64,000 bases of DNA, from NCBI GenBank assembly GCA_016934215.1, contig JAFGTE010000033.1, positions 8,781 to 72,780 on the forward strand, given 5' to 3'. Source of the DNA: Candidatus Peregrinibacteria bacterium. GTDB taxonomy: Bacteria > Patescibacteriota > Gracilibacteria > UM-FILTER-43-11. Shown here piece after piece: positions 27,707 to 47,333 of the stretch. The position numbers were made by a program, and so were the translations under genes. The first letter of the stretch is position 1. Every line of letters begins with the position of its first letter. Below the pieces are notes generated by a model, which was not told where the DNA came from, did no database searches, and saw only the letters and a program-made list of their open reading frames with translations.

Positions 27707-27763
27707 AGCCATTCTTAGGGCTAAGTAGTAAGGACTAAGAGAGATTTTAATTTCAATCCAATT

Positions 27764-28183: not shown

Positions 28184-28219
28184 CATTTAATTTCAGATTT
28201 TGAATTTCAAATTTTCATT

Positions 28220-28678
28220 ATGACGAAAACTAAATATATACCAGAGGGATCTACCAAATGGCAGGAAAAATTTATTAACTGCATGATGTTACGTGGTAAA
28301 AAATCTATTTCGCGAAGTATTTTTGGTAACGCTATGAAAATCATGCGTGATCAGGGTATTAAGCATCCTGAAGAGGTTTTTGAAAAAGCGATCCGTAACG
28401 TGATGCCTAATATGGAAGTACGCGCTCGTCGGGTCGGCGGCAGTGTGTATCAGATTCCTGTGGAAGTAAAACCCAAAAGGCAGCTGGCACTTTCTATGCG
28501 CTGGATTATCGGTGCATGTCGCGGCAAAAAAGGTAAGGCTATGGCTGAAAAACTGGCTGCAGAGTTTTTAGAAGCGAGCAAAGAAACTGGTAACGCCTTC
28601 AAAAAACGTGAAGATGTACACCGAATGGCTGCAGCTAATAAAGCTTTTGCGCATTTGGCCCGGTATAGTAAAGGATAG
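28220..28678 (+). CDS. rpsG: 30S ribosomal protein S7.
   Basis: FINCMMLRGKKS...VEVRARRVGGSVYQIPVEV...ANKAFAH matches S7. Confidence 0.95.
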   Translation: MTKTKYIPEGSTKWQEKFINCMMLRGKKSISRSIFGNAMKIMRDQGIKHPEEVFEKAIRNVMPNMEVRARRVGGSVYQIPVEVKPKRQLALSMRWIIGACRGKKGKAMAEKLAAEFLEASKETGNAFKKREDVHRMAAANKAFAHLARYSKG

Positions 28679-28726
28679 ATAATCTTAATTTTATTGGTGG
28701 TAAATCACTTCTGCGTGTCATCACAC

Positions 28727-28981
28727 GCGTATGACTTTTTGCTTGGTTTGTTTCTTTTTCGCACCTTTTTGGAAAGGTGCGCCAAAACACTGGGGCTTTT
28801 TGAAGTGATTCATCTTACTTCCTTGTCCCATCTTTTTCCACGCAAAAAGCCCCAGACCCCGAAGCCTTAATTCATTGTATCACTTCCGTATGTTTCATCT
28901 TGAGCCTGCCAACGCTTTCCGGAAAAGAGGAAAGTTTTCTCGGTGCCAGGAATTCTTAGATATGAGAAAAAAGTCATATGC
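28727..28981. other. Intergenic element with nested helices (candidate structured RNA or DNA element) at the rpsG-side island boundary.
   Basis: The outer pairing is GCGTATGACTTTTT (28727-40) with AAAAAGTCATATGC (28968-81), 14 bp with one G-T. An inner 9-bp hairpin is CGCACCTTT/AAAGGTGCG (28760-81). A 13-bp helix is CTGGGGCTTTTTG (28790-802) / CAAAAAGCCCCAG (28843-55). Confidence 0.3.
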
Positions 28982-29015
28982 GTGCGCTTATAGCGAGAAA
29001 AGAGTAGGATTTTAC

Positions 29016-29044
29016 TTGCTGAGAAGAGCTAAATATGCTAAAAT
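29016..29044 (+). promoter_or_regulatory. Sigma70-like promoter candidate for the SLH-domain gene.
   Basis: TTGCTG (29016-21), a 17-nt spacer and TAAAAT (29039-44) lie about 27 nt upstream of the ATG at 29071. Confidence 0.4.
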
Positions 29045-29070
29045 TTCATCGCAAAAATAAAAAAACAAAC

Positions 29071-30132
29071 ATGCAAACAAAGAAGCGATTAAGTTTTTAT
29101 ATAAAAGGCGTTAGTTCTGTGACTCTGGCGCTGTTTTTGATGCTGAATTTCGTATCTCCTGTTCTGGCTCAGACAGTTGGAACTACTTCTTCCGGAACGC
29201 AGCTTGTGAGTACCGGTTTTAGTGATGTGAACCGCACTCATCCTAATTACACGGCGATTACTTATCTTAGTCAGAAGGGCGTTATTGGAGGATATGCCGA
29301 CGGTACTTTTAAACCTGATAATGCTATTAATCGGGCTGAGGTACTTAAAATCATTTTAAGCGGATCCGGAATCGAAACGGATGAAGCTTTTGGCGCTCAT
29401 TTTCCGGATGTAACTGAAGGTGATTGGTTTGCCCCTTACGTCATGAAGGCGCGGGCTATAGGTTTTGTGAAAGGGAATGATGCGGATGGTACATTTACCC
29501 CGGGGAGACAGGTGAATATGGCAGAATTCTTAAAAATGCTTCTGGTGGCTAATGGTATTGATGTATCAGCTTTTGAGGGCAAACAGGTAGCCTCCAACAT
29601 TCCTCTGGATGCCTGGTACGCTAATTATGTGAACTATGCCGTAGCGCTTGGTATTGCGCCGCGTGACAGCAAAGGTAATGTCGATGCCGCTAAACTTCTG
29701 ACCCGTGGGGAAGTCGTGGATATGATGTATCTGCTTTCCATTATTCAGAATGGCAGTGATACTCAGTTTCTGCTCACCCGGGCAGAATCTGAAATGGCCC
29801 AAATCGAAGTTTATATTGCGGCCAATATGGTGGCGCATGCCAAAAATGCTTCAGACTTGGCAGTGGATCTGACCCAGCAGGCTTACAAAAATATGCCTAC
29901 GAATAATGTTGTTCTCGGTGCCGCTAAAATTGCCCGTGCTTATGACTGGCTCGTGGATTCCTTTATTCTGGGGATTCAGGGGGATAATGAAGGGGCCGCA
30001 AAAGTCGCGAACGATGCCATTGATAAAGCGACGGAAGCCTGGGAAGCCAATAACGCGACTCAACCTATTGCCAAGCATATTAAAGACCGGGCCCGGGAGA
30101 TTTTGCAGCAGGTTGGTGGGGTGGAGACTTAA
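29071..30132 (+). CDS. Secreted protein with three S-layer-homology (SLH) domains and a helical C-terminal region.
   Basis: The signal peptide is MQTKKRLSFYIKGVSSVTLALFLMLNFVSPVLAQ. SLH repeats are FSDV..HPNYTAITYLSQKGVIGGYADGTFKPDNAINRAEVLKII, FPDV..DWFAPYVMKARAIGFVKGN.DGTFTPGRQVNMAEFLKML and DAWYANYVNYAVALGI...LLTRGEVVDMMY. I chose the ATG at 29071 over the track start. Confidence 0.8.
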   Translation: MQTKKRLSFYIKGVSSVTLALFLMLNFVSPVLAQTVGTTSSGTQLVSTGFSDVNRTHPNYTAITYLSQKGVIGGYADGTFKPDNAINRAEVLKIILSGSGIETDEAFGAHFPDVTEGDWFAPYVMKARAIGFVKGNDADGTFTPGRQVNMAEFLKMLLVANGIDVSAFEGKQVASNIPLDAWYANYVNYAVALGIAPRDSKGNVDAAKLLTRGEVVDMMYLLSIIQNGSDTQFLLTRAESEMAQIEVYIAANMVAHAKNASDLAVDLTQQAYKNMPTNNVVLGAAKIARAYDWLVDSFILGIQGDNEGAAKVANDAIDKATEAWEANNATQPIAKHIKDRAREILQQVGGVET

Positions 30133-30134
30133 GT

Positions 30135-32228
30135 CTAAGTACCAATCGCAATCCAGTTAAAACTTTCACCGTTGTTACTTGAATCAACGGTTATGGTGAA
30201 TTGAGTAGTGGTTGTATTTGAAATATGATACCAAGTGTCGTTGTTACCGATTGTATCGGAACTATTCGGAGTAACTACCACAACAGGCGGACTGGTGAAA
30301 GTTTTATTAAAGGCTGTTGTTACGGAGTTGCCCGCTGTATTGGCAGTAGTTCCGTAGTCGATTACAGGTACACCAGTAGCGATAGCTTCAAAGGCTCCTC
30401 CGTCATTGCTTAATACCCATTGATTACTTGCGGCATCATATCCAATGATGCCGTTATTATCGGAACCCTGATTTACGATAATACCAACGTTTGCTCCGGG
30501 GCCGGTGTTATCATAATCAAGTGTAATAATGGTTCCATTAGTAAAGATATTGTCAGTGAATCCAAAAGCTGCGTTTGAGCTATCCCAGCCGAATAAATGA
30601 TCTGTTCCGTCATCAAAAGTAATATAGGAAAGTGCGGCGTTTCCATTGCCGATTTCCATTACCGCTCCTGTTCTTTCGATATCTATCGGGGCTGTTGCTG
30701 AAGCAATGCCGATACCGATGTTACCGGATGCGTCGATACTCCAATCGTTACTTGCCACAATAAAATCGTTGGTGCCGGTGTTGATTGTGAAGGCGCCATT
30801 GCCTGTAGTAAGGGTTTTGTCCACGTCGGTTGTATAAACACCCTCGAAATCCGAAGAACCGCCACCACCTGAGGCCGTAATGTCTTCCCAGACACTTCCG
30901 CTCCAGATGTAGGTGTTGTTGTCACTCGTGTTGTGGTAGATTTGACCCGCGACCGGACTTCCGGGGGCTGAAGACGCATTGTGCAAAGCGACATCGCGGA
31001 TCTGATTCTGGCCAAAGCTCAGATCGTCTGAAATCTGAAACTGGTCATTTGTATCGTTCCAGGTCAGGTTTTCCCAGGTGTTGCTATTTCTGCCTAAGCT
31101 CAGGGTTCCGTCGCTGTCGGTAGCCGCGTGGTCGTCTGCGACGTAGGCTTGTCCAATAACTGCTAAGTTGCCTTCAGCCCTCAGAGCGTCTGTTAAGGTG
31201 AAACGGCTATTGGAAGAATCCCAGAAAAGAGTTTCAGCCAGAGCGGTTCCAAATTGTAAGGTTACGTTGCCTCCGGTATCATCGTTATCAAGGATGAATG
31301 TATTTGAATCAGTTCCGATGTCAGTGTTTTGGGTATGGTTTCCTTCGCCTCCGCCACCCCCTTCCACTCTGGAAATCACCAGTGCAGAACCGCCTGCCAA
31401 AGTAGCAATGTTGGAGCTACCACTACTGCGTTGGGCCTGTATTTTAAGTTTATCCCCGGCACTCAGGTCTAAAGTGAAACTGCGGCTTGCTGTGGCATCC
31501 CCCTGAGTCGCGGTTCGGTTATACATTTTTGCGATAGAGCCAGCAACAGCGGCATAGCCTGAACCGGTATCCAGCATCAGCCTGGCTTCTGATTCACTTC
31601 GGTTGGTGCCGGAGGTAATATCGGTTGTGACTGCGTAGTTTACATAATAGGTTCCGTCAGTATTTACGGTGATTTCAGCTGAACCGGTTGAATGAGTGAA
31701 GTCAGTCGTTTTCTTTCTTTCTGTTCCCAGGGGTATATCCGTGAAGCCTGCATCAATACTGGTTCCTCCCGTTGAATCGTAGGCATCAAAGTATTCTGCG
31801 GTTCCACTACTTCCTCCACTACCAAAAGTCGTGAAGGCACCCCCATCGTTGCTATATTCCCACTCGTTAGTTGTGGCATTGTAGCGAATGGTTCCGTCAT
31901 TGTCGGAACCCTGGTTGGCGATAATATTAACCGTATTACCCGCTCCTGCATTATCTGCGTCCAGTGTTATATTTAAACCGTTCTGGCTAAAACCTCCGTC
32001 TATCGTGAGATCATCACTCAGATCAAAATTGAGGGTTGAGCTGTTCCATCTCAGGTATTTCCCAAGTGAAGCGCCGAACTGAAGGGTCACATTGCCTCCG
32101 GTATCATCAGCGTCCAGAATAATCGTGTTGGAAGCATTTTCATCTTCGTCGCTTGGCACAAAGTCGGCCAGTGCAAGTTGTGGAAGCAGTAGGGTAATAC
32201 CTGCGATGATGACGAGGAGTTTTTTCAT
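30135..32228 (-). CDS. Large secreted repeat protein A, a member of the TLQFG / NQNQIK / GQIYHNT module family.
   Basis: The signal peptide is MKKLLVIIAGITLLLPQLALA. Modules include NTIILDADDTGGNVTLQFGASLGKYLRWNSS, NTFILDNDDTGGNVTLQFGTALAETLFWDSSNSRF and NDQFQISDDLSFGQNQIRDVALHN..PVAGQIYHNTSDNNTYIWSGSVWEDIT. Confidence 0.75.
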   Translation of the reverse strand: MKKLLVIIAGITLLLPQLALADFVPSDEDENASNTIILDADDTGGNVTLQFGASLGKYLRWNSSTLNFDLSDDLTIDGGFSQNGLNITLDADNAGAGNTVNIIANQGSDNDGTIRYNATTNEWEYSNDGGAFTTFGSGGSSGTAEYFDAYDSTGGTSIDAGFTDIPLGTERKKTTDFTHSTGSAEITVNTDGTYYVNYAVTTDITSGTNRSESEARLMLDTGSGYAAVAGSIAKMYNRTATQGDATASRSFTLDLSAGDKLKIQAQRSSGSSNIATLAGGSALVISRVEGGGGGEGNHTQNTDIGTDSNTFILDNDDTGGNVTLQFGTALAETLFWDSSNSRFTLTDALRAEGNLAVIGQAYVADDHAATDSDGTLSLGRNSNTWENLTWNDTNDQFQISDDLSFGQNQIRDVALHNASSAPGSPVAGQIYHNTSDNNTYIWSGSVWEDITASGGGGSSDFEGVYTTDVDKTLTTGNGAFTINTGTNDFIVASNDWSIDASGNIGIGIASATAPIDIERTGAVMEIGNGNAALSYITFDDGTDHLFGWDSSNAAFGFTDNIFTNGTIITLDYDNTGPGANVGIIVNQGSDNNGIIGYDAASNQWVLSNDGGAFEAIATGVPVIDYGTTANTAGNSVTTAFNKTFTSPPVVVVTPNSSDTIGNNDTWYHISNTTTTQFTITVDSSNNGESFNWIAIGT

Positions 32229-32231
32229 TTT

Positions 32232-34403
32232 TTATTGAAGTTTTTTACCGGTGTAATTAAGGCGTAGCATTAAGATATTGATGTCGTTTGTATAGGTGTT
32301 GGCTACGTTGCCGGCTTCGCGGCTGAGGCGAATATTTACCATATCATCAGCGTCCAGAGCGGCGGCAGGAATGGTAAACGTAAAACGAGTGAGTTCCAAA
32401 GCTGTTCCTGGGGCAGCCTGTGTTGAATTTAATGTAGTAGCTCCTGAAATCGTTTCGCCGTTGGCCCAGGACTGATAATCGAGTTCAAAATAAACGTTGC
32501 CGGCTGTGACATCTTCCGGGGACCAGAAAACTTCCACCTGCAAATCGGTGCCGCTTTGCCAGTCGTCCGGTATAGGAAATGAATATGACATCCGACTGTT
32601 CCCGCCAGCGTCGAAGTTCACAGCCGGAGAGGTGCCGCTATTTACAGTACCTGCTGCCGCCGAAGTTCTAACGGCTCCATTGATATCCAGCCACACATAT
32701 TTGGTGGCGGTGGCGTCGGTGTATATGGGGCCTTTCACTCCAAGTGAATCTTCAATAAAGACGTCATTACCATCCAGAGTAAATGCTGGATTCGTGATTG
32801 TTTCAGCACTCGCTCCGATTGTTAAATCGTCTATGATATTCAGGCTGTCTGTTAAGACAAAGGCACTTTCTGAATTGTCCCAGAAGAGACTTTCTGTTAA
32901 TGTTCCTCCAAATTGCAGTGTGATATCAGTTCCGTCTCCATCAGAATCAATGGTGAAAGTGTTTGATGTGGTCCCAACGTCGGTGTTCTGTTCGTGTGCT
33001 CCGGCACCAGTTCCACTACTACCCTGTATTCCGCGCAGATCAATAATACGCAATACGTCTGTGCCCCCTTCCTGCATAATCAAATGAGCAATTGGAAAGC
33101 CGACAGTGCCCCATGCGACTGGAACTCCATTGACAGCTACTTTGTCGGGATCTTCAATAGCTTGTTCAATCGAAGTATATTCAGCGGTTGGTGGATTAAG
33201 TTGTCTTTCCATATGTAAACCACCATAAATATCACCCCAAATAAATAGTTTGAAATATTTGTTGTTACCAATTGGGTCATTTCCTCCTGCGCCGTCATCA
33301 TAATTTGTTACATCCAGTACACCGTAAGTGTTGTAATACTGATCCAGCATTAAATCGGTACTTGCAGTGTTTTTAGCAGGGTAATCAATTTCTTGGTGAA
33401 TGTGCATGACTGAACCCGCAGAAATCTGCACTTCAAGTCCGGTATTGGTGAATTCAGTGCCGCTTAACCACAAAGTCTGATCTAATCTTAGTCGTCTGTT
33501 GACGTCGCGGATAAAGTTCCTGATAAAGTTCGTCAGGTTTTCAATATAATAGTAGGTGGCATCAGAAGCGCCAACGGTTCCCACCAAAACTTCAGCGATC
33601 GGTACCCAGTCAAAAGTTTGGGTATCAGGGTTAGTTGTGCTTGCTTCCACAATACCCCCATCTTTTACGTATACGTAGTTTAAGGTCGGGTTAGTATCGG
33701 TTCCTCCCGTTAAGGCAATTCCCGGACTGATATTGTTGTTGATTTCGTATTCTGTGTTTTCGATATTAGCTACAAAAAAAGTATCTTCTGGATTTTCATA
33801 CGTCAAATAAGCCACGTTGCTTATCACGTTTTCACCGAGTACTAAATTATTGTCGATGGTATTTCGGTTGATCTCGTCGCTTTGGGCTGCCAGGGTATTC
33901 AGTTCTACCACCTGAGTCCAGTCCATTAAGCCCTTTGTTGTTTCAGTCGCTAAAGGGATATCATCTTCTCCGTTAATGTGAGTTAAGGCATGATAGCCAA
34001 TGGGTTCCCAGCCGGTTGACGTGTACATGTAAGTCTGTTCGTCGGTGGTGTTGTAGTACACCTGTCCTTCCATGGGTGTGAGGGGTGCGGTAGCAAGATT
34101 GTCGATTGTAAAGTTTTTGATTTGGTTTTGGTTGAGGTTTAGATCGTTGCTGAAATCGAACCAATCATTGCTGGTGTCGAAGGTGATTGTTTCAGAAAGT
34201 GAGTTTCCAAATTGTAAACTGACATTTCCGGTAACGTCGCCCCCGGCGTCAATAATAAAAGTGTCACTTCCATTGTCTTCGATTAGAAATTCGCTTTTAA
34301 AAACAATTCGAGCGTAAACGGGGTTGATTCCTGTCAGGAGTATGATTCCGGATAGTAATAAGACAGTGCTTTTTCCAATGATTTTTTGGAAGTGTTTTAG
34401 CAT
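32232..34403 (-). CDS. Large secreted repeat protein B of the same module family.
   Basis: It has a signal peptide. Modules are DTFIIDAGGDVTGNVSLQFGNSLSETITFDTSNDWFDFSNDLNLNQNQIKNFTIDNLATAPLTPMEGQVYYNTTDEQTYMYTSTGWEPIG and NTFTIDSDGDGTDITLQFGGTLTESLFWDNSESAF. Only 3 nt separate it from protein A, so the two are likely an operon. Confidence 0.75.
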   Translation of the reverse strand: MLKHFQKIIGKSTVLLLSGIILLTGINPVYARIVFKSEFLIEDNGSDTFIIDAGGDVTGNVSLQFGNSLSETITFDTSNDWFDFSNDLNLNQNQIKNFTIDNLATAPLTPMEGQVYYNTTDEQTYMYTSTGWEPIGYHALTHINGEDDIPLATETTKGLMDWTQVVELNTLAAQSDEINRNTIDNNLVLGENVISNVAYLTYENPEDTFFVANIENTEYEINNNISPGIALTGGTDTNPTLNYVYVKDGGIVEASTTNPDTQTFDWVPIAEVLVGTVGASDATYYYIENLTNFIRNFIRDVNRRLRLDQTLWLSGTEFTNTGLEVQISAGSVMHIHQEIDYPAKNTASTDLMLDQYYNTYGVLDVTNYDDGAGGNDPIGNNKYFKLFIWGDIYGGLHMERQLNPPTAEYTSIEQAIEDPDKVAVNGVPVAWGTVGFPIAHLIMQEGGTDVLRIIDLRGIQGSSGTGAGAHEQNTDVGTTSNTFTIDSDGDGTDITLQFGGTLTESLFWDNSESAFVLTDSLNIIDDLTIGASAETITNPAFTLDGNDVFIEDSLGVKGPIYTDATATKYVWLDINGAVRTSAAAGTVNSGTSPAVNFDAGGNSRMSYSFPIPDDWQSGTDLQVEVFWSPEDVTAGNVYFELDYQSWANGETISGATTLNSTQAAPGTALELTRFTFTIPAAALDADDMVNIRLSREAGNVANTYTNDINILMLRLNYTGKKLQ

Positions 34404-34532
34404 CTATATAATTCCCTATATTTTAGCATAATTTGACTTATTTTTCAATGGATTGTGGTTTTTGATACCTCCTTGTCCGCCCCACCATATGGCAGGGCGG
34501 GCAGAAGGCGTTTGTGCCAATTTTGGATTTAT

Positions 34533-34549
34533 TAACTATCACCAACATC
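34533..34549. repeat. Left arm of a perfect 17-bp inverted repeat bracketing gene 34557-36848.
   Basis: TAACTATCACCAACATC lies 8 nt beyond the stop codon. Its reverse complement is at 36996-37012. Confidence 0.8.
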
Positions 34550-34556
34550 TGCAGGA

Positions 34557-36848
34557 TTACTTGGTATAAGCCCAATCAATCCATGCCATGTCGGCCCAGT
34601 CAGCCGCACCAGTATCGTCCAGAAGCTTGATCTGGAACTCGATCTGGTCATCGGCGCTAAGACCCGCACAGCCAGCATTGATGGTGGCGGCTGGAATGTT
34701 TTGAGTTGCCCAGACGTTGGCCGAGTTGTTGTCATTGTCCGTAAAACAGGTGGCGGCATCGGTCACGTTGTACATGATAACTTCAACATCGTTAGAAGCG
34801 GCGGTGGTGGTACCTGTTCGGAATCTGAAATCAACGTCACCTGTGGCGTTAAAATCTTCTGGAACAAAAACCGTGAAGCGGATATCGATGTCCTGCTGAT
34901 TACCATTATTGGTCGTCCATTCGTAGTAACCGCTGTCTTCACCGGTGTCATAGAAGGATTCCAGAGTACCCTTATTATTGGTCCCATCGGCGTGTACGAC
35001 GGCATTTTGATATTCCGGATAGAAAGTCAGGATCTCGTAGTTGGCACCGTATAGGTCGCCGGCAATCTCCTGAATGGCACCTTCAACGTCGGTGGCTGTC
35101 AGGTAGGCGCCCGCGTCTTCGATTCCGACTAATGACGCGCCTTCTCCGTTGGCCGTGGAAGCCAGGTCGCCCCATTTTAGATCAAGCTTGTTTAAAGCGG
35201 TGTAAACAGGGTCGTTGTCAGCGAGTACGTTGTCTTCTGTGAAATTGAAGGTATTGCTGGTCGTTGAACCGAACAAAGTTTCGATTTCATTCAAAGCGGC
35301 TTCTATTTCAGCTCCTGTGAACCAAGCGGAGGCATCTTCAATGCCAACATTACTTGCACCATTACCATTGGTAGTAAGGGCAAATGAGTTGATGTTGTCG
35401 ACAATACCATCTTCATTAAAGGTGGGATTCCAGTCGGTGGTTGCCGGGTTGCTGGTTAACTGAACGATTCCCGTTAGCTGAGCGTCGTCAAAAATGACAT
35501 CATCACCGGCGTTGATAGAGATATCGCTGGTTCCGGTGGTCGTGATATCCGAATCAGCCGCGCCCTGAAAACTGAGAGCGCCTGCGGCGTCAACAGTGAT
35601 ACCGCCGGCTGTGGCATTTAAGTCAATGGCGTCAGTTCCGGTACCGGATGAATTCAAGACAACGCTTGAATCGGTGGCTCCTGTTACGGCGATCGTCAGA
35701 TCATCGCCCGCTCCGTCGGAAGCGACAGTAAAGTCAGACGCGTCAGCGGCGCCGATATGAACAGCGGTTGTTGAATCCAGATTAAAAGCGCCTGTAGCGT
35801 CCCAATCGACGATCAGAGAGTTGATGTCGATGGTATTACCACCGCTATCCAGAAAGTCAATCAATGAGGTTCCGCCGCTGTTTTCAAGTGAAAACAGGGT
35901 ATCACCGTTAGCGTTGGCAATAATTTCGAAAGGATTACTTCCGCCGGCTGCCAGACTGATTTCATGAGCACCTGCTCCGTCCTGATCGTAAGCTGACTGC
36001 AAGTCAACGGTGGCTGCGGGAGCAGAGCTCGCCCACGTACCTGGATTACCTACTCCGGTACAAATGTAGATCAAGTTCTCAGTTGTATCGAGTACGATTT
36101 CATCCAGATTTGTACAAGCTGCGGTTGCTTCGTCAGTGACTTCACGAATGTGAAATTCGCTTGAACCCTGAAATTGCAGAGCGCCAGTTGTTCTTAAATC
36201 GGCATCCGTGAAATCAAAAGAATCACCGGGTGCGGAAAGGGTGACCTTTTCATTGTTTGGATCGTAGCTGATCACAGCGTCTGTACCATCATTGCCTAAC
36301 TGAATCTCAACCGTGTCACCGAGCACGCCACCGGTTAAGTTGGCGCCTGTGGCGGTAAGTGTGCCTGCAGTAGAGGTATCTCCAGCGGTGGTTGTGAAGT
36401 TGTTAGCGGGGTCTGCCACTTCAGCGGTAACAGTAATGGTGTTCGCACTATAGGCAGCGTCTATAATGTGGCCTACCGTGTAGTTGTTATTGATAGCAGC
36501 CGTTAAACCTTGCAGTACAGCAGCTGTGTCAGCGGTATCGCCACCGGCACAATCTGTGGTGGTGGCTGTGTATACAACAGCGGTGCCGTTAATGGTGGCG
36601 GTAAAGGTTTCGCCAGCCACACAAGCGGCGTCAACCATGGTATAGGTTCCGGTTGATAGAGTTCCGTCAACCATATTGTCATTCTGATCTAGAATAATGC
36701 CCTCTGATTCGATGTTGAACCACTCATCATCTTCGAAGAGGATACGCGCGTTGGCTGCACCGGCGGTTGTGATAACCAGTGTAATGGCCAGCAAGGAGCC
36801 GGTTATGCGTTTAACCCACTTCGTGAATTTTGGGTTATGTGTATTCAT
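34557..36848 (-). CDS. Large secreted Thr/Ala/Gly/Asp-rich repeat protein C. Its C-terminal domain is shared with protein D, and the gene is bracketed by the 17-bp inverted repeat.
   Basis: The signal peptide is ...SLLAITLVITTAGAANA. The C-terminal block FYPEYQNAVVHADGTNNKGTLESFYD...YYEWTTNNGNQQDIDIRFTVFVPEDF parallels FHVEYEDTTIQGDGTNNRGLLSSYF...YYEWTTRRSTMQDVDIILSFRLPEDF in protein D. G+C is visibly higher than in its neighbours. Confidence 0.75.
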   Translation of the reverse strand: MNTHNPKFTKWVKRITGSLLAITLVITTAGAANARILFEDDEWFNIESEGIILDQNDNMVDGTLSTGTYTMVDAACVAGETFTATINGTAVVYTATTTDCAGGDTADTAAVLQGLTAAINNNYTVGHIIDAAYSANTITVTAEVADPANNFTTTAGDTSTAGTLTATGANLTGGVLGDTVEIQLGNDGTDAVISYDPNNEKVTLSAPGDSFDFTDADLRTTGALQFQGSSEFHIREVTDEATAACTNLDEIVLDTTENLIYICTGVGNPGTWASSAPAATVDLQSAYDQDGAGAHEISLAAGGSNPFEIIANANGDTLFSLENSGGTSLIDFLDSGGNTIDINSLIVDWDATGAFNLDSTTAVHIGAADASDFTVASDGAGDDLTIAVTGATDSSVVLNSSGTGTDAIDLNATAGGITVDAAGALSFQGAADSDITTTGTSDISINAGDDVIFDDAQLTGIVQLTSNPATTDWNPTFNEDGIVDNINSFALTTNGNGASNVGIEDASAWFTGAEIEAALNEIETLFGSTTSNTFNFTEDNVLADNDPVYTALNKLDLKWGDLASTANGEGASLVGIEDAGAYLTATDVEGAIQEIAGDLYGANYEILTFYPEYQNAVVHADGTNNKGTLESFYDTGEDSGYYEWTTNNGNQQDIDIRFTVFVPEDFNATGDVDFRFRTGTTTAASNDVEVIMYNVTDAATCFTDNDNNSANVWATQNIPAATINAGCAGLSADDQIEFQIKLLDDTGAADWADMAWIDWAYTK

Positions 36849-36995
36849 TTTATGAATTTTAGTTATTAATATCTGAGCCCTTTGGAGGGGATAGGCTCAC
36901 TTCCCCGTTAGACCTCATTGGCGTAAGGCCCCACTCCTTCCACTGCAAACCACTGTTATTGTGTTTCCCCCGTTTGGGGTCTGCAGAGGGAGAAG

Positions 36996-37012
36996 GATGT
37001 TGGTGATAGTTA
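36996..37012. repeat. Right arm of the perfect 17-bp inverted repeat.
   Basis: GATGTTGGTGATAGTTA lies 148 nt upstream of the ATG at 36848 and 168 nt downstream of the stop of gene D. Confidence 0.8.
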
Positions 37013-37179
37013 TTCGATCACATAGGCGTGTTGGTTAGTTAGTAATTTGTTTGAGTCTTCTTATGGACTCGATGGTGATTCCGATGCTAGAGTGATCGTG
37101 ACTTTGTTCACTGGTCTGCCGTTCCAATGAAAGTCCTCTAGATCAGAATCACCATTCAGTCCACAATGGTGAATTTGGT

Positions 37180-40100
37180 TTAAGTGCCGTTATAGTTAAA
37201 TATCACGTCGGAAACGCGAGTGTATCCGGTACTGGTTGTTTGCGGTTTGATGACAAGCGTTACGACATCTCCCGCATTAAAGGTGGGTGAACCGCCAAAG
37301 GTAATGCTGGCGGTCGTCCAGGTGGCGTTGGCTAAATCGGTTCCGCCAGTAAGTGAAACAGCGGTACCCGTTGTGTCGTACAGTGTAATATCAATCTGGT
37401 TGGTAGTCAGTACTCCATTACTGGTCTGGTACAGAATGGTAAGCGGTGTACTGGTAAAGCTCTGGAAATCTTCAGGAAGTCTAAATGACAAAATAATATC
37501 CACGTCCTGCATGGTGCTTCTTCTGGTGGTCCATTCGTAATAGTTGTATTTGCTCGTTCCGCCGGCATCGGCAAAATATGAACTGAGTAAGCCCCGATTG
37601 TTAGTGCCGTCTCCCTGAATGGTGGTGTCTTCATATTCCACATGGAAGACGGCCGTCTTTCCTTCCAGGCCGCCAAGCTGAATCCAGCCGGTGTTGGTTG
37701 AGTTTCCGGAATTTTTTATGTAAGCATTTCCGTTGCCGCTGTCTACAAGCAAATCACCGACTGAGCCTGTAATGGCACCTTCCGGGCTGGAGTCACTGCG
37801 AAAGAACTGAATATCACCACCAGTGTTTTCCAGAGTCGCGATAGCAGCAGTATTGGCTGCATTGGAATCGATGTGAAAAACACTGATAGGGTTTGTGTTG
37901 CCAATGCCGACCGAACCACCGTCGGTGAATATGACAAACGGCGTGCCGGCATCCTGCACCACGAAATCCCCGGTGCTCTGCAAATCCACCACAATATCAC
38001 CGGCCACACTTGATTCAAATTCAAGCCCACTGGCATTATTCACGGCCATTTTTTTATCGGCGTCTGCTCCATATACTCCATCCAGGTCGTCGACTCCGGT
38101 GGCTCCGGCTGTAATGTCATCCCAGCTCGCACCGTTCCACACGTAAGTATTTCCGTCTGCGGTGTTGTGATAAATCTGGCCTGCTACTGGTGCAAGTGGT
38201 GCCACTGCCAGATTATCAATGGCTACGTTTTTGATCTGATTCTGATTGAAATTGACATCATTACTGAAAGAAAACCAGTCATTCGTGATGTCGAAAGAAA
38301 GAAATTCGGCGAGTGTGGCACCAAAGAACAAATCAATTGTGCTACCAGCCCCTACCGTGTCGTCTGAATCGATGGTCCAGGAGTCAGCATTAGTTCCTCC
38401 CGGAATGTAGTTGATATTCCAAAGTCCTCCAATGCCCAGAGTAGCAATGTCTCCGGCTCCTGTGCCGACTTCTGCATTGTCAATAAAGTCCGCGTTGTTG
38501 GTATATGGCACTGAGCCTACAGTCTGTCGGTCATCCGTATCAGTACCGTTATCACCCGTTGGATCCATCACTTCATAAGCGGTGTCGGCAGCCCCTGTAA
38601 CCTTGATTTCCACCATCAGGTGTGTATGGGTGCTGAGCAGCATATTCGGCAAAGGTACGCCGCTGCCCAATTCCACAAAAAAGGTTCCGTCTGTGTTTGG
38701 CGTCAGCGTATGAGTCTCGAACCACCCGCCATAATTGGGCGCTGCTCCGTTAATGGCACCGACGCCATCAATATCCCCGGCTACTAAATCATCAGAATTC
38801 CATAAAGAAAACCGGAAGGTCTGCGAGGTGGTAATCGGATTATTGGAGCTGTCCAAAAGCTTTCCTTCGTACACAAACACAGTCGGTGTGGTTACCGCGG
38901 CAAAAGCTATCTGCTGGATCAGCATTGTGATAACCAGTGAAACTGACAACAGACTTCTTACTTTGAATTCACTCTTTCGTTTGTTTGACTTGCATGATTG
39001 TCCGATGGCGAAGATAAGAAGAATGCTCAAAAGCACCCAGATATTTTTTGAATCTTCAGATGCTTCGATGTTGAAGATATAGCGCTTGTTTCGCTGCACC
39101 TTTCCATCTTCGTATACCTGCACGATGTGCATCAGATAGCTTCCGTCTTTTAATTTCTCCGGAATTTCAAGTTTGTAGTCACCGTACGCATCAGCCTGGG
39201 TGCTTATGTGGGTGATGTCACTGACTCTGCTCCGCTGTTTTTCAATTGGCTGAATGTAGGCGTGATATTTTGTATTTGGTTTGCCGTTACCGGTAAAATT
39301 GCTCAGTTCTTCCACAGAGCCCAGACAAATATATTCACGGCTGATTTCGCCGTTTATAGCCAGATTATCGTGCAGTCGGTACTTACGGTCTTCAATGGTA
39401 ATCGTCCAATTTTTGTAAATTGCTCGGTTCTGATCGAATAGAGCGATGCCATAAGTCTTGTATTCCAGGAATGGAACACTTTCCATCATCAGCACACCTT
39501 CGGCGGTGCTCTTTACCCCCTGTCTGGTCACCGCATTTCCGTTTTCATCAAAGATGACCATTTCGTAGACAGTGTTCGGTTTAGCCTGAGTGACTAGGAA
39601 CGGCGTTTCATCCAGTACAGTAATTAGCTGACCTTTCTGGTATTGGCTGAAGTGATAGTCATAATAAGATAGTTTTTCTTCCAGCACTTCTTCTGTCGGA
39701 GCGGCGGGTTTCAGACCGGGTTCTTCGAGGCTGACCTCTTCCGGAGCGGCGGGTTTCAGACCGGGTTCTTCCAGTGCTTTAATTACAAATGCAAGGTCGG
39801 GATTGAATTCGGGTTCAAAAATCAGCTGTGATTCTTCTTCCGATTTTTCTTCCGGAGGGATTTCTTCCCCAGTTTCTATGGTGCAGAGTGGTGTACATCC
39901 ATCTTCGTAGTCTACGTTTCCGTCGTCACATTGTTCGCCGATTTCTTTGATTCCGTTGCCACAATGATGATCTTCAATCCGGCAACCTTTCGAACAGCCG
40001 TCGCCGTTAAGTAAGTTGCCATCATCACATTGTTCACCGGCTTCCCGTTTGCCGTTTCCGCAAGTAAATGTGTCACTGCCTCCGGGGCTGGTGTTGAAAC

Positions 40101-40470
40101 AGCTGGTGGTGACAATCTGGCAATTGACGCATTGCAGATTGCCGCTATTAAAACCATAACTGCTACAAGTGAGCCCATTGAAATCCGTTCCCTCACACTG
40201 TTCACCGGTTTCGATGATTCCGTTTCCGCATGTTGGGCCAACAACGGCAGGACTTGCGTAAACGTTGCGCAAATTGTAGCTGGCGGAACTGCCATCAGCG
40301 CTTATATCTGAAATGGAATCTGTGAGATTGTAGCTGGAACTTGTCTTTTGGTCTGAGTCGCTGATGAACCTGGCATAGTCGAGCCGGTAACTAGCACTGG
40401 TGCTGCTTTCGGCCAGGGCTCCTGGAGCCATTAAAATACCCAGAAGCACTAACATGAAAACAATACTCAT
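37180..40470 (-). CDS. Giant composite surface protein D. It has a signal peptide, three Myxococcus-type Cys-rich repeats, a proline-rich duplicated linker, a mid-protein TM segment, a second signal-like segment, the module-family region and the shared C-terminal domain.
   Basis: The ATG at 40470 gives [20 protein letters not shown]; the track's GTG at 40620 is an alternative start. Cys-rich repeats are [41 protein letters not shown] and [27 protein letters not shown]. The family module reads [79 protein letters not shown]. Confidence 0.75.
   Translation of the reverse strand: [1096 protein letters not shown]
39697..39771. repeat. Tandem duplication with a 45-bp period inside gene D.
   Basis: CGGAGCGGCGGGTTTCAGACCGGGTTCTTC occurs at 39697-39726 and again at 39742-39771. 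It encodes [10 protein letters not shown] twice. Confidence 0.9.
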
Positions 40471-40847
40471 GCGCGCGCGCGTATAAGAAAACAAGCCGGA
40501 TTTCAAAATACGCAAAAACCAGGCTACGTGGCCTTCGTTTTTTTCAAGCAGATTGGATTTTTGTTTGGGTTTTAAGGCAAACCCATTCCCGGCAGATGTA
40601 TAGGGTTCGGCAGATAACACGTTGGCAATTAGTGTTTGTTTTTATTTTCGTGACGGCAGTTCACGACGGCAGGCAAATAAAGGTTGATTTAGGTTTTTTC
40701 TACTTGTTTATTTGATTGATTTTTTAGAAATAAATCTTTATATTATAGCAGAAATAAAAGGCAAAGTCGAGGAAGGTACCTTGTCATAAGACAATATATG
40801 TTTTTTGCTTTTATATTGCATGAATCATAAAATATGGTCTGGTATTC

Positions 40848-40876
40848 TTGACATAAACTAAAAAACATAATATATT
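40848..40876 (+). promoter_or_regulatory. Sigma70-like promoter candidate upstream of gene 40901 and of fusA.
   Basis: TTGACA (40848-53), a 17-nt spacer and TATATT (40871-76) lie in an AT-rich divergent intergenic region. Confidence 0.45.
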
Positions 40877-40900
40877 CGCTTCCATTTATGATTGTTTCTT

Positions 40901-41305
40901 ATGAAATTAGAGGATGCTAAAGATTTAGGGGAAAGACTCGAATGTTTAACGTCTTCTGAGCAAGCTAATTGCAAGTCTTTTCTTATTCTGCTGCGGGAAC
41001 TGGATCATGCGATGCACATGGAACAGCAGGTCAAGGCTTTAGATGTGTCGCTGTCTGAGCCGGAAGCTGTTTATTTGGCGATGAGCAGGCGAAGAATGAT
41101 CAGAGTTCTGATGCAGGTTGCCCAAGATGATAACGTTAAGGAATTTATGAATTTGCAGGAGTGGGAATTGGAAAAGAGAAGAATCGAAAAACACGGCGGC
41201 ATTGGAAATCCTACGCGTGATAAATTCATAAATTGTATGCATGTTTATCTGGAAGAAAAACTGAAAAAGGTAAGAGAAGCAGAAGAGGATGAAAGAGCTG
41301 CCTAA
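40901..41305 (+). CDS. Hypothetical helical protein.
   Basis: It is 134 aa from the ATG at 40901 (the track uses TTG at 40892). No known motif is present. Confidence 0.5.
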   Translation: MKLEDAKDLGERLECLTSSEQANCKSFLILLRELDHAMHMEQQVKALDVSLSEPEAVYLAMSRRRMIRVLMQVAQDDNVKEFMNLQEWELEKRRIEKHGGIGNPTRDKFINCMHVYLEEKLKKVREAEEDERAA

Positions 41306-41400
41306 AAATATGTATGATAAGTCGGGCTTGTCTTTTTTCGGCTAGTCTGTATACTGGCTGCGCGATTTTTAATTTTTGTAATTTTTAAATTTTTTATTCA

Positions 41401-43488
41401 ATGGCAGATTTTAAAGAAGCTCTTAAAATGGTACGCAATTTCGGTATTATTGCGCATATTGATGCCGGTAAAACAACCGTTACGGAGCGTGTTTTGTATT
41501 ACACCGGTAAAAACTACAAAATCGGCGAAGTACATGAAGGAGAAGCTACGATGGACTGGATGGAACAGGAACAGGAGCGTGGTATTACGATCACAGCAGC
41601 CGCCACAACCTGTTTTTGGAAGGGGCATCAATATAACATTATCGATACTCCCGGGCATGTAGATTTTACAGCGGAAGTAGAACGTTCTATGCGCGTGCTT
41701 GATGGAGGCGTTGTGGTGTTTGATGGTGTGGCCGGAGTGGAACCTCAGTCGGAAACGGTATGGCGTCAGGCTGATAAATACCATGTGCCTCGTATGTGCT
41801 TTATCAATAAACTGGATCGTACAGGTGCCAGTTTTGAAAAATCTTTCCAAAGTATTTTAAAAAGACTGACCAAAAAAGCTTCCCCCTTACAGCTGCCTAT
41901 TGGTATTGAAAGTGGTTTTAAAGGACTCATTGATTTAATTGAGATGAAGGCCACCATTTATAAAGATGATATGGGCAAGGAAATGGAACAGATTGATATT
42001 CCGGAAGACATGAAAGCTTCGGCTGAAGAATGGCGTGCCAAGCTTCTTGAAAAAGTGGCGGAGGGAGATGAAATTTTTATGGAAAAATATCTGGGAGGTG
42101 AGGAGTCTACTGTGGAAGAGTTAAAAGCGGCTATTCGCCGTGCAGTGATTGCCAATCAGTTTGTGCCGGTTCTAACGGGTACGGCGCTTAAAAATAAAGG
42201 GGTACAGCTGCTTCTGGATGCGGTCAACGATTATCTGCCCTCGCCTCTTGATATTCCGCCAATTCATGGCCATATGGTTGATGACGAAGCTAAAATAGTA
42301 GAACGTCATACCAGTCCTGATGAACCGCTTGGCGCTCTGGTGTTTAAAATTGCCACGGATCCTTTTGTCGGCCGTCTGTGTTTTGTGCGCGTGTATTCCG
42401 GTGTGCTTAAATCCGGCTCTTATATATATAATTCTTCTCAGGGGGAAAAAGAGCGCATTGGCCGACTTGTTGAAATGCATGCCAATGAACGAAAAGAAAT
42501 CCAGGAAATTTCAGCCGGTCATATTGGTGCGGTCATCGGACTCAAGTCAGTTCGCACGGGAAGCACGCTGGTGGGTGACGGCGCGCCAAAAGTTATTCTG
42601 GAATCCATTACCTTTCCTGAACCGGTTATTTCCATTGCCATTGAACCCAAGACCAAGGCGGATCAGGAAAAGATGGCCCTTAGTTTGCAGAAACTGGCCG
42701 AAGAAGATCCCACATTCCGGGTGCGTACGGATGAGGAAACCAATCAGACCATTATTTCCGGTATGGGAGAGCTTCATCTGGAGGTTTTGGTGGATCGCAT
42801 GAAACGTGAATTCAAAGTGGAGGCCAATGTCGGCCGCCCTCAGGTAGCTTATCGGGAGACTGTTCAGAAAGAAGTGGAGGAAGAAGAAAAGTACGCTAAG
42901 CAGACAGGTGGCCGCGGTCAGTACGGACACGTTTTAATCCGCATCATGCCGAACGAAGCCGGTAAAGGATACGAATTTATCGATTCCATCGTGGGAGGAC
43001 GCATTCCCAGGGAATATATTCCCGGTGTGCAGAAAGGAATTCTGGAAGCCCTGACGCGTGGTGTGATTGCCGGGTACCAGGTGGTTGATGTGAAGGTAGA
43101 GCTTTACGATGGTTCCTATCATGATGTGGACTCTTCGGAACTTGCTTTTAAAATGGCGGCCAGCATTGCTTTCCAGCGTGGCGCCAAAAAAGCGGATCCC
43201 ATTCTTTTAGAGCCCATGATGAGCGTGGAAGTGGTCACTCCGGAAGAGTTTATGGGCGATGTGATGGGCAATCTTAATTCCAAACGCGGTCAGATTGATA
43301 GCATGGGAGACCGCGGAGAAGCCAAAACCATTACGGCTAAGGTGCCGCTTTCTGAAATGTTCGGTTATGCCACCGATCTTCGCTCTATGACTCAGGGAAG
43401 AGCCAGTTATACGATGGAATTTTCTCACTACGCCAAGGTTCCGAAGAACATCGAAGAGAAAATCAAGACGGAGCGTGGAATGACCTGA
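41401..43488 (+). CDS. fusA: Elongation factor G.
   Basis: Conserved blocks are [31 protein letters not shown] and [16 protein letters not shown]. Confidence 0.97.
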
Positions 43489-43623
43489 TTCTGAAACCTT
43501 GCAAACAAGCCAGAATATATTGGGAACTTATTCCTTATTTTTGACAAGCAAAAGCGTTTTCTTTGTTTGTCATTAAAGTCTTTTTTTGCTACACTTTTTA
43601 AGAAAATAATTTCAAAACAAAAA

Positions 43624-44124: not shown

Positions 44125-44164
44125 TTTATAAATGTTTGAAATAACAATAAAATCTAAGATAAAT

Positions 44165-47314: not shown

Positions 47315-47333
47315 TCATTGATTTTAATTTTTT

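Follow-up and report, generated by a model that had tools for sequence, protein, structure and literature searches.

Gene content of the divided str operon

The window, i.e., the complete 64,000-nucleotide stretch of DNA that was analysed, carries rpsL and rpsG, and fusA only beyond an rpsG-fusA interval of 12,722 bp. The first-pass annotation had described rpsL and rpsG without an adjoining fusA and about 12.7 kb between them, and the gene identities and coordinates hold in Pfam searches and ORF calls. The interval contains an SLH gene on the plus strand, four large ORFs for exported proteins on the minus strand (697, 723, 763 and 1146 aa; 30135-40620) and one small ORF on the plus strand. 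Of the six genes, the four antisense ones converge on rpsG and the SLH gene, as had been described. The str operon is in fact interrupted twice, the second break lying between fusA and tuf (43567-48023) and holding three genes for exported proteins. The features are:

27764-28183, plus strand: rpsL, ribosomal protein S12 (PF00164 Ribosom_S12_S23, E value 5.8e-36)
28220-28678, plus strand: rpsG, ribosomal protein S7, final gene before the first break of the operon (PF00177 Ribosomal_S7, E value 4.6e-50)
28679-29034, plus strand: structured rpsG-SLH spacer (terminator scan, inverted repeat, RNA fold)
29036-29044, plus strand: extended -10 motif TGCTAAAAT, putative promoter of the SLH gene (sequence and relatives)
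29071-30132, plus strand, ORF open from 29035: SLH-domain envelope protein, 353 aa (PF00395)
30135-32228, minus strand: P697, exported fibre-like protein (Pfam, PHROG, internal module repeats)
32232-34403, minus strand: P723, mosaic fibre-like protein (PHROG, homologues, AF2/Foldseek)
34420-34448, minus strand: putative promoter 5' of P723, TTGAAA-17-TAAAAT preceded by TG (consensus scan, 10/12)
34557-36848, minus strand: P763, most conserved fibre component (homologues, AF2/Foldseek)
37180-40620, minus strand: P1146, fusion protein (TIGR02232, DUF4215, shared modules, orthologues)
40742-40876, both strands: putative divergent promoter region (highest-scoring pair of sites in the scan)
40892-41305, plus strand: P137, small helical fast-evolving ORF, 137 aa (small ORFs of relatives)
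41328-41360, plus strand: putative promoter (41328-41355) overlapping a hairpin and T run (41339-41360) just 5' of fusA (consensus scans)
41401-43488, plus strand: fusA, EF-G (complete set of EF-G Pfam domains)
43567-48023, plus strand: second surface island, with P185, P1060 and P229 (Pfam, PHROG, sequences)
43567-44124, plus strand: P185, secreted cysteine-rich protein
44132-47314, plus strand: P1060, tail-fibre-like, C-terminal Peptidase_S74 chaperone domain (PF13884, 45.6 bits)
47334-48023, plus strand: P229, putative lipoprotein
48445-49638, plus strand: tuf, EF-Tu (Pfam EF-Tu domains)

In a survey of diverse bacteria, rpsG was found upstream of fusA in 73 of 80 fusA loci, with a median gap of 75 bp and a maximum of 2,077 bp. 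The 12.7-kb gap is far beyond this range.

The rpsG-SLH spacer includes a terminator-like hairpin with a T run (28712-28729) and a 35-nt inverted repeat (28709-28743 and 28965-28999) that encloses 221 nt, and its predicted RNA fold has an energy of -101.4 kcal/mol (z = -3.4). A search of the spacer against Rfam gave no match. In relatives the spacer is shorter, only 41-330 bp, with the exception of one locus (1,209 bp) whose SLH protein is 53% identical. Most of the 13 spacers listed from relatives have a TGnTAAAAT-like motif at the corresponding place 5' of the SLH gene, and because this conserved extended -10 overlaps the first ATG at 29035, the most likely start is the ATG at 29071. The SLH protein matches PF00395 in three stretches (96 bits, E value 1.2e-27) and comprises a predicted signal peptide, three SLH repeats and a helical C-terminal domain of ~125 aa. 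Its homologues number 415; over 120 of them are orthologues with at least 59% identity, and orthologue length is uniform (343-368 aa).

Pfam, PHROG and TIGR searches with P137 gave no matches, and its position is also taken by a small ORF in three relatives (L084, L126, L129) at only 20-24% identity. In the adjacent divergent region, the minus-strand site (40770-40742; TCGACT-17-TATAAT with TG) faces P1146, while the plus-strand site (40848-40876; TTGACA-17-TATATT) faces P137 and fusA. The latter, already proposed as a promoter candidate, has the top score of the region (11 of 12 positions), in a scan that overall is barely above chance (36 promoter-like sites vs 28.1 +/- 4.9 in shuffles). Terminator-like matches show a slight excess only (22 vs 17.5 in shuffles).

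Fibre-like proteins of the two islands

The initial view that the cargo is surface or exported, not housekeeping, is supported by the domains detected: SLH, BclA_C, H_lectin, the myxo cysteine-rich repeat, tail-fibre-type necks in PHROG and CBM-like beta-sandwich tips. The large proteins of the interval are T/S/G/N/D/A-rich and K/R-poor, and a BFVD search returned matches to tail-fibre-like models. P697, whose stop codon lies 2 bp from that of the SLH gene, is composed of two fibre-like units. Unit 1 includes a BclA_C domain (TNF/C1q-like; residues 153-288) scoring 37.6 bits, just under the cut-off of 38, and the second an H-type lectin/Gp53-like C-terminal domain (residues 623-696; H_lectin, 25.3 bits vs a cut-off of 24). 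The phrog_8309 neck motif and internal module repeats are also present.

A Pfam search with P723 gave no match. It is predicted to comprise a signal/anchor, the shared modules A and B (residues 46-135), a central domain that is conserved (59-523) and, at the C-terminus, a beta-sandwich tip (residues ~560-723); the N-terminal motif corresponds to phrog_38707/8309, and segments of the protein are recombined among homologues. In P763, a signal/anchor is predicted to be followed by an extended shaft, modelled at low confidence, and by a CBM-like jelly-roll tip (~600-763); many of its 64 homologues are full-length, with 46-59% identity. AF2 gave poor full-length models (mean pLDDT 50 and 60), usable only for the C-terminal domains, which reach pLDDT 70-86 in P723 and 75-94 in P763. 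Foldseek matches of these domains are fold-level only (E values about 1e-5 to 1e-4, 8-16% identity): weak jelly-roll matches for the P723 tip, among them the Bd2133 fibre tip (8ond), and CBM6, CBM11, CBM61, the EphA2 ligand-binding domain and a tailspike C-terminal domain for the P763 tip (TMt 0.5-0.64).

P1146 has a cysteine-rich N-terminal half (myxo_disulf_rpt/DUF4215; TIGR02232 at 83 bits, with DUF4215 also matched), after which come two TM segments; its C-terminal half resembles a fibre and contains modules A and B plus a relative of the P763 tip. Its orthologues are 65-71% identical at full length, and in one relative (L127) the two halves are separate genes. This gene had been given a start at ATG 40470; the GTG at 40620 is most likely instead, since the protein sequences of two relatives conserve the resulting 50-residue N-terminal extension. 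In the second island, the S74 domain of P1060 contains the motif SDARLK, of the SDxxxK type, and tail-fibre PHROG matches reach E values down to 1.4e-19. Cargo between fusA and tuf is also present in relatives L108, L129 and L132. As judged from sequences and models, the fibre proteins are mosaics in which N-terminal and neck modules are common and the tips (BclA_C/TNF-like, H-type lectin or CBM-like beta-sandwich) are interchangeable.

Conservation of the split and competing explanations

Comparison of rpsG-fusA spacing in relatives, as called for in the first-pass annotation, revealed that the split recurs. In locus L084 (rpoC 89%, rpsG 86% and fusA 93% identical) the island measures 12.6 kb, the flanks share 86-94% identity with the window and the cargo 37-65%, as a mosaic. 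In L129/L130 the island is 13.5 kb on a 250-kb contig, and relatives with an rpsG identity of only 79-86% retain the island position. fusA follows the SLH gene after 0.3-0.8 kb, with almost no cargo, in L099, L108 and L132/133; antisense fibre genes lie between the two in at least nine loci; and L085, L110, L126 and L134 combine antisense fibre genes with a sense-strand pilB-pilC-pilin operon (type IV pilus). Only the SLH-to-fusA cargo is variable across the clade. Thus, the term accessory island is apt for this cargo, but not for the SLH gene, which is conserved, uniform in length and fixed after rpsG. In the two nearest species representatives found by fusA (L002 and L003; 71-72% identical), neither rpsG nor tuf was found within 10 kb of fusA, and no fibre homologues were nearby.

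Since the SLH gene lies directly 3' of rpsG in 28 of 28 related loci with upstream sequence, the arrangement is not a recent insertion in the genome of the window. Nor does the island bear marks of recent acquisition from a foreign source: a search for an integrase, a tRNA and flanking repeats beyond chance level found none, and the unusual codon use of the antisense genes is common to other minus-strand genes of the window. We consider it probable that this is a lineage-fixed split of the str operon, in one clade of uncultured Candidatus Peregrinibacteria, whose gap is a hotspot for adhesin and pilus surface genes.

The locus might instead encode the organism's own S-layer or envelope scaffold, i.e., an SLH anchor with large acidic lattice proteins, as a structural housekeeping module and not as ligand-binding adhesins. 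The SLH domain (PF00395) is the classical S-layer anchor, SLH, P1146-like and P763-like genes co-occur as a module also away from rpsG (L111, L113, L114, L120, L127), and the full-length conservation of P763 in many relatives, the amino acid composition of the proteins and S-layer genes described from Peribacteria (PMC4736985) would all fit. However, the non-SLH part of the SLH protein is only ~125 aa, the Pfam search detected no SLH repeats in the large proteins, the tips belong to binding folds (lectin, TNF or CBM-type), the necks match phage proteins, genes of the P723/P697 type are mosaic and vary in presence between relatives, and the L132 interval is without the whole fibre set. We regard a scaffold as unlikely.

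It is quite improbable that the fibres are type IV pilus accessories (tip or shaft adhesins, or DNA- or surface-binding partners) and not free-standing. Fibre homologues do adjoin pilB-pilC-pilin genes in L083, L085, L110, L126, L127 and L134, and the window encodes a secreted nuclease and DprA, which would fit a DNA-uptake lifestyle; but in the window, L084 and L129 there are fibres with no pilus gene in the interval, the Pfam search found the N_methyl prepilin motif in none of the fibre proteins, and the linkage may reflect merely a common hotspot for surface genes. A decayed prophage, tailocin or other recently acquired mobile element that landed in the str operon by chance is very improbable. 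It would account for phrog_8309, phrog_38707, several tail-fibre PHROGs, Peptidase_S74, Gp53-like_C, the BFVD matches and a faint Y1 transposase match adjoining fusA in L129, but we were unable to find integrase, terminase, capsid, tube, sheath or baseplate genes, a tRNA or above-chance flanking direct repeats, codon use is accounted for by strand, the position persists in relatives with as little as 79% rpsG identity, and the proteins bear cellular signal peptides or anchors.

An assembly or binning chimera, in which the island would not truly lie between rpsG and fusA, is effectively refuted: although the independent Logan contig SRR13394437_765662 (13,565 bp) terminates within rpsL and within fusA, and such conserved genes are the usual branching points of assembly graphs, this product of a second assembler, independent of the assembly of the window, equals window positions 28015-41579 at 100% identity, encodes an exact copy of RpsG and crosses both junctions, and other samples yielded single contigs with an equivalent layout (L084, L129/L130), those with the same gene order measuring 16.5 kb, 16 kb and 250 kb. 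Both junctions, which had been singled out for this check, are thus free of chimera.

Known systems and predicted function

Interruptions of the ancient transcription/translation gene supercluster by non-mobile multigene blocks have been published, and in these, as in the present split, the downstream part needs new promoters. The published insertions lie between operons (e.g. str/S10) and are 3-4 genes long, whereas the present breaks are inside the str operon (rpsG/fusA and fusA/tuf), reach 12.7 kb, are mostly antisense, and are conserved in position and variable in content across a CPR clade.

The nearest functional analogue is the MAT (mosaic adhesive trimer) fibre superfamily of Bdellovibrio bacteriovorus, mosaic adhesins of fibre type from a bacterium that preys on others (Caulton et al. 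2024, PMC10769870). In both, the proteins measure ~600-1,100 aa, bear a signal peptide and combine a conserved presentation end at the N-terminus with a long fibre body and with C-terminal tips that can be exchanged (S74 chaperone/protease with SDxxxK, TNF/C1q-like, lectin-type and novel beta-sandwiches). Each genome has several paralogues, phage-tail-fibre ancestry is common to the two, and the carrier of MAT fibres must recognise other bacteria (PMC10769870). The likeness, which includes the weak match between the tips of P723 and Bd2133, is one of layout and tips, apart from the defining N-terminal domain of MAT, and a trimer is putative here. Unlike in Bdellovibrio, the carrier has a Gram-positive-like CPR envelope and an SLH partner gene, and the genes are concentrated at a fixed chromosomal hotspot within the str operon. 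P1060 resembles S74 phage tail fibres and tailspikes (PF13884) in its S74 domain with SDxxxK, and the neck motif is common to the N-termini of phrog_8309 and phrog_38707 phage proteins, but virion and tail genes are absent nearby and the proteins have cellular export signals. Similarly, P697 shares a BclA_C-like domain with BclA-type collagen-like fibres (PF18573), although collagen GXY repeats are absent.

Complete genomes of Peribacteria, members of the same phylum, encode large exported, often cysteine-rich proteins (Myxococcus cysteine-rich repeat/pappalysin-like), S-layer genes and type IV pili (Anantharaman et al. 2016, PMC4736985); the passages of that paper on S-layer, pili, ribosomal protein, operon and surface mention neither placement in the str operon nor fibre mosaicism. 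In Saccharibacteria, another CPR lineage, adhesins and type IV pili are required for epibiotic growth, and surface adhesins with lectin-like domains mediate host binding together with the pili (PMC10633639; PMC12206443). This is a different CPR class, and the comparison is by protein type, not by adhesin homology.

In the mechanism that we propose, synteny shows that a small SLH-domain envelope gene with its own extended -10 is fixed directly after rpsG, and that the SLH-fusA spacer is a variable cargo site, occupied by near-nothing, antisense fibres, or a pilus operon with antisense fibres. From the motifs, a hairpin would end the rpsL-rpsG unit, and the SLH gene, the antisense genes and P137-fusA would be separate transcription units with promoter-like sites of their own, so that expression of fusA may no longer depend on read-through from rpsL. 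Sequence and fold show cargo with an N-terminal signal/anchor, neck modules in common with phage protein N-termini, and swappable C-terminal tips, with segments shuffled between orthologous loci; the fibre of the fusA-tuf island adds an S74 autoproteolytic chaperone domain. The proteins would be exported by the Sec pathway and assembled into fibres, probably trimers, with the N-terminal anchor at the envelope, possibly with the SLH protein, and the ligand-binding tips outward. Acting alongside type IV pili, they may attach to glycans or proteins of partner cells, host cells or other surfaces. Given the fold types, the mosaicism and, in relatives, the linked type IV pilus genes, attachment to a host or other cells by these fibres is plausible.

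Gene order from rpoB to the spc series

The adjacency rpsL-rpsG-fusA-tuf is near-universal and among the most conserved gene orders in bacteria. In the window, whose surroundings hold the usual gene series rpoB/rpoC, str, S10 and spc, the str operon is interrupted after rpsG and again after fusA. The first-pass annotation had mapped rpsG, then cargo, then fusA, and this arrangement was confirmed by ORF listing and Pfam scans. The features are as follows.

27764-28183, + strand: rpsL (ORF listing and Pfam scan)
28220-28678, + strand: rpsG (ORF listing and Pfam scan)
28712-28729, + strand: hairpin with a T run after rpsG (motif scan)
29035-30132, + strand: ORF of an SLH-domain protein with three SLH stretches (ORF listing and Pfam)
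29036-29044, + strand: extended -10 motif before the SLH gene (sequence, relatives)
30135-40620, - strand: span of four large ORFs of 697, 723, 763 and 1146 aa, here P697, P723, P763 and P1146 (ORF listing)
40770-40742, - strand: TGCTATAAT, promoter-like site with TCGACT at -35, before P1146 (motif scan)
40848-40876, + strand: TTGACA-17-TATATT promoter-like site before P137 and fusA (motif scan)
40892-41305, + strand: 137-aa ORF, here P137 (ORF listing)
from 41401, + strand: fusA (ORF listing and Pfam scan)
43567-48023, + strand: second island, three genes (Pfam, PHROG, sequence)
50144-50494: Avd-like four-helix-bundle gene (TIGR02436 / 23S rRNA-IVS protein), between rpsJ (49757-50086) and rplC

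The rpsG-fusA spacer measures 12,722 bp, against typical spacers of < 300 bp in the canonical str operon. Among 80 loci from diverse bacteria, rpsG was found upstream of fusA in 73, with spacers of up to 2,077 bp (median, 75 bp), and the spacers exceeding 500 bp belonged mostly to other CPR genomes; the 12.7-kb spacer is far outside this range. Nor does tuf follow fusA immediately, as it does in the canonical operon, the gap being 4,956 bp with three genes inside (median in the comparison loci, 108 bp). In NCBI, the 723-aa and SLH proteins correspond to the locus tags JXD20_04730/35 of a Candidatus Peregrinibacteria MAG (81.6-kb contig). Promoter-like sites precede the SLH gene, P1146, P137 and fusA, and a hairpin follows rpsG; transcription is here inferred from motifs alone, the scans being only slightly enriched over shuffles.

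A false join of unrelated sequence, which the first-pass annotation had singled out for checking, is wholly improbable. Logan contig SRR13394437_765662 (13,565 bp), which was made by a different assembler and may stem from the same reads as the window, is 100% identical to positions 28015-41579 and crosses both junctions. In L084 (SRR23086384), the order rpoC-rpsL-rpsG-SLH, three large antisense genes, a small ORF, a GGDEF gene and fusA is found on one contig, and in L129, a 249,933-bp JGI contig, as well as in L130, a Logan assembly made independently of it and covering that region, rpoC-rpsL-rpsG-SLH is followed by five antisense genes, a small ORF and fusA, and then by a second island with a Peptidase_S74 protein. 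The island is 12.6 kb long in L084 and 13.5 kb in L129/L130. Because these two further assemblies come from other samples and share the layout, the question is settled and misassembly is ruled out for practical purposes. A contig scan with fusA as query returned only distant species representatives. The closest of them, L002 and L003 (71–72% identity), have neither rpsG nor tuf within 10 kb on either side of fusA and no fibre or SLH homologues near this stand-alone gene; with fusA relocated, they are uninformative on the island. In these Patescibacteria the str operon seems to have come apart in a further, different manner.

Other features of the window concern the same gene series. The ssb gene lies between rpoB and rpoC (23305-23733), an order shared by every Peregrinibacteria relative whose sequence covers this region (L087, L089, L091, L097, L098, L100, L110, L131, L132 and L134) and in the Gracilibacteria MAG L007, and in 0 of 32 other bacteria compared. 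The Avd-like gene (TIGR02436, 101.5 bits; DGR-Avd, 46.5 bits versus a cut-off of 80) is enclosed by a 32-nt inverted repeat (50091-50122 / 50496-50527), in a similar manner to four-helix-bundle ORFs of this type inside rRNA intervening sequences, and L129 carries two TIGR02436-type genes inside its islands. A diversity-generating retroelement acting on the fibre tips, which the Avd-like gene had brought to mind, was rejected: the annotated ORFs contain no RT domain, and the 27-51 kb region contains no TR/VR-like repeat. The stop-codon-rich 15-mer GGACTAAGTAGTAAG occurs 7 times (<= 2 mismatches) versus 0.02 expected, its copies at 27718, 50092-50113, 50498-50526, 53030 and 60808 all lying in intergenic spacers of the rpoC/str/S10/spc series. 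Elsewhere, the window encodes a large secreted nuclease (15-2405; PKD, three lamin-tail domains and SNase) and DprA (15646-16713), a pair compatible with DNA scavenging or uptake.

The SLH gene and the variable site behind it

The SLH protein scores 96.1 bits with PF00395 (gathering cut-off 20.8) over three tandem stretches. Its family comprises 415 matches at E <= 1e-20, and the orthologues are strikingly uniform at 343–368 aa. A metagenome scan with this protein, together with three context look-ups, yielded about 45 related loci. In all 28 of the loci which have an SLH orthologue of at least 58% identity and upstream sequence, rpsG is directly upstream on the same strand, with 66–91% identity to the rpsG of the window. 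The upstream regions of the orthologues have in common an extended -10-like motif, TGnTAAAAT, of which the window copy is TGCTAAAAT at 29036-29044. This position puts the SLH start codon most probably at 29071, in agreement with an independent gene call. The single 'major tail protein' PHROG match among the island ORFs falls on the SLH protein and covers its SLH repeats.

The spacer between rpsG and the SLH ORF (28679-29034) is 356 bp long in the window; relatives whose SLH orthologue is at least 58% identical have 41–330 bp. Folding predicts a stable long-range structure (-101.4 kcal/mol, z = -3.4) with a 35-nt inverted repeat as its closing stem, and the spacer may represent either a small insertion or a structure for processing or termination; an Rfam search of both junction spacers gave no credible match. 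The spacers of relatives contain short repeated or inverted 'words' of their own, for instance CCGATAGTAAAT in L100 and GGCTACATTGTGG in L102 and L094. At its other end the SLH gene converges with antisense P697, the two stop codons being only 2 bp apart (30132-30135). This leaves no room for intergenic terminators, and the two transcripts may therefore overlap.

What follows the SLH gene varies among the relatives. In L099, L108 and L132/L133, fusA comes only 0.3–0.8 kb after it, and the 126-kb contig L132 reads rpsG-SLH-two small ORFs-fusA. Antisense fibre genes come after the SLH gene in the window and in L084, L089, L091/L129, L094, L100, L102, L103 and L131, while L085, L126 and L134 have a sense-strand pilB-pilC-pilin operon and then antisense fibre genes. 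The same operon is present in L110, with no fibre homologue in the 10 kb downstream, and L095-L097 have unrecognised cargo. In more distant relatives (L127), the module of fibre genes with a convergent SLH gene is not located at rpsG, and here too pilus genes adjoin it. L108, L129 and L132 also have cargo between fusA and tuf. Comparison of the window with L084 indicates that the flanking genes are 86–94% identical at the protein level, and the cargo is 37–65% identical and rearranged. The positional counterparts of P137, a protein without a family match, are only 20–24% identical. The simplest reading is that the operon was split long ago by insertion of the SLH gene, which became fixed, and that the SLH-fusA spacer then became a site at which surface-gene cargo is gained, lost and reshuffled.

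Fibre-like proteins of the two islands

The N-termini of the four antisense proteins have a basic stretch, a hydrophobic stretch and an AxA-type site, as judged by eye without a predictor. Three modules are common to all four: module A, with a core like TGGNVTLQFG; a 'neck', module B (NQNQIKN..IDNL..AP..P..GQIY.NT....Y.W.G..W), which matches the N-termini of the phage families phrog_8309 and phrog_38707; and a C-terminal beta-sandwich. P697 contains a BclA_C (TNF/C1q-like) domain at 37.6 bits, just below the cut-off of 38, and a C-terminal H-type lectin domain (H_lectin, 25.3 bits versus a cut-off of 24). In P1146, a cysteine-rich N-terminal half (TIGR02232, 83 bits; the Cys-repeat assignment being the sole addition of the NCBIfam scan) is joined via two membrane segments to a fibre-type half. 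This fusion is kept in L084 and L126; L127 has a gene for each half.

Full-length AF2 models were poor (pLDDT 50 and 60), with a shaft pLDDT < 60 in the monomer models, and the structure comparison drew on their C-terminal domains alone. P763, the best-conserved member of the group, was modelled poorly overall, with a confident tip (residues 600–763, pLDDT 75–94) that matches CBM6, CBM11, CBM61, the EphA2 ligand-binding domain, MAM and a tailspike C-terminal domain at target-normalised TM-scores of 0.5–0.64. The tip of P723 is similar at lower confidence, and its weak matches include the fibre tip of Bdellovibrio Bd2133. The mosaic pattern is seen directly in homologues of P723: some retain both ends, N-terminus and tip, with an unrelated segment in between, and others share its N-terminus and central domain and differ in their tips, among them BclA_C. 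Sequence searches of the PDB gave no matches for P697, P723 or P763, pappalysin Cys-repeats only for P1146, and weak tail-fibre chaperone matches only for P1060.

The latter (1060 aa) lies in the second island, flanked by a 185-aa secreted protein rich in cysteine and a 229-aa putative lipoprotein. It matches tail-fibre PHROGs with E values down to 1.4e-19, and its C-terminal end is a Peptidase_S74 domain (PF13884, 45.6 bits) whose SDARLK sequence fits the SDxxxK catalytic motif at the sequence level. The earlier view of the cargo as surface proteins is borne out by tips of lectin, TNF and CBM type, by the export signals and by the phage-fibre affinities.

The nearest functional parallel is the mosaic adhesive trimer (MAT) fibre family of Bdellovibrio, whose members end in S74, TNF-like, lectin or novel beta-sandwich domains (PMC10769870). 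Tips of the MAT type, i.e., S74 with SDxxxK or an adhesive fold, are present in P1060, P697 (BclA_C below cut-off), P763 and P723 (CBM-like or jelly-roll tips in the last two). The MAT shaft is an intertwined trimeric beta-helix/prism; the shafts of the island proteins were modelled as monomers at low confidence. MAT proteins are defined by a conserved, beta-rich N-terminal domain of about 130 aa after the signal peptide; the island proteins share N-terminal modules A and B of their own. Membership is not claimed, and the parallel lies in a common plan, with a base that is conserved and a tip that is diversified.

Proposed role of the locus

The cargo proteins combine export signals, shared modules at the presentation end, swappable binding-type tips and phage-fibre affinities, and they are genetically linked to a putative wall-binding SLH protein and, in relatives, to type IV pilus genes. 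We propose that they would form fibres, probably trimers, with ligand-binding tips that would extend outward from the envelope and attach the bacterium to other cells or to surfaces. Saccharibacteria depend on adhesins and type IV pili to grow as epibionts (PMC10633639; PMC12206443), and by analogy host attachment by the cargo proteins would be a reasonable possibility.

The main alternative, an S-layer or envelope-scaffold role, is favoured by the conserved module made up of the SLH gene, P1146 and P763, and we consider it unlikely in view of the binding-type tips, the mosaicism of the proteins and the relatives with an empty site. It is more doubtful still that the fibre proteins are accessory parts of a type IV pilus. 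PilB/PilC and pilin genes occupy the same site in L085, L110, L126 and L134; in the window, no type IV pilus genes (PilB/PilC, N_methyl pilins) were matched. Descent from a decayed phage or mobile element is very improbable. When every ORF of the islands was scanned with Pfam and PHROG, the matches were of fibre type only, with no capsid, terminase, tube, sheath, baseplate or integrase gene, and a prophage or tailocin was rejected on these grounds. A mobile genomic island was likewise rejected; there is no integrase or transposase and no tRNA within 15 kb, and flanking repeats are only short and at chance level. Foreign composition also failed as a candidate: the odd codon use of the antisense genes is shared by the window's other minus-strand genes, used as controls, and thus reflects strand bias and not foreign origin.

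We regard it as a long shot that the rpsG-fusA and fusA-tuf spacers are a dedicated diversification site for partner-recognition genes, i.e., a selected way of evolving host range and not a neutral accident. The fibre genes would then lie beside the cell's strongest, permanently active promoters and would be opposed to the flanking transcription and, by GC skew, to replication, and head-on conflicts together with local recombination would speed up tip swapping and sequence change.

The locus does not amount to a system of a new type. Small blocks inserted between operons of the transcription/translation supercluster have been described (PMC6735719), whereas the split in the window is inside the str operon. 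For Peribacteria genomes, pili, S-layer genes and large cysteine-rich proteins that are exported have been noted (PMC4736985). In a limited literature search, we found no description of a clade-fixed split inside the str operon, of a conserved SLH gene after rpsG, or of a variable, mostly antisense fibre/pilus cargo site with a second island before tuf.

The locus shows that a str operon can be split, its parts probably coming under new promoters, and can stay so through long periods of evolution, a clear exception to a highly conserved bacterial adjacency. In marker-gene synteny checks on MAGs of this clade the split should not be flagged as misassembly. Very few Patescibacteria outside the Saccharibacteria have been cultivated, and partner recognition is therefore inferred almost entirely from genomes. 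The locus offers a concrete set of candidate recognition proteins, easily located downstream of rpsG-SLH, and its relatives form a natural comparative series of empty site, fibres, and fibres with type IV pilus genes. It is of use in locating candidate recognition proteins of an uncultured phylum, and it documents an exception to a near-universal adjacency.
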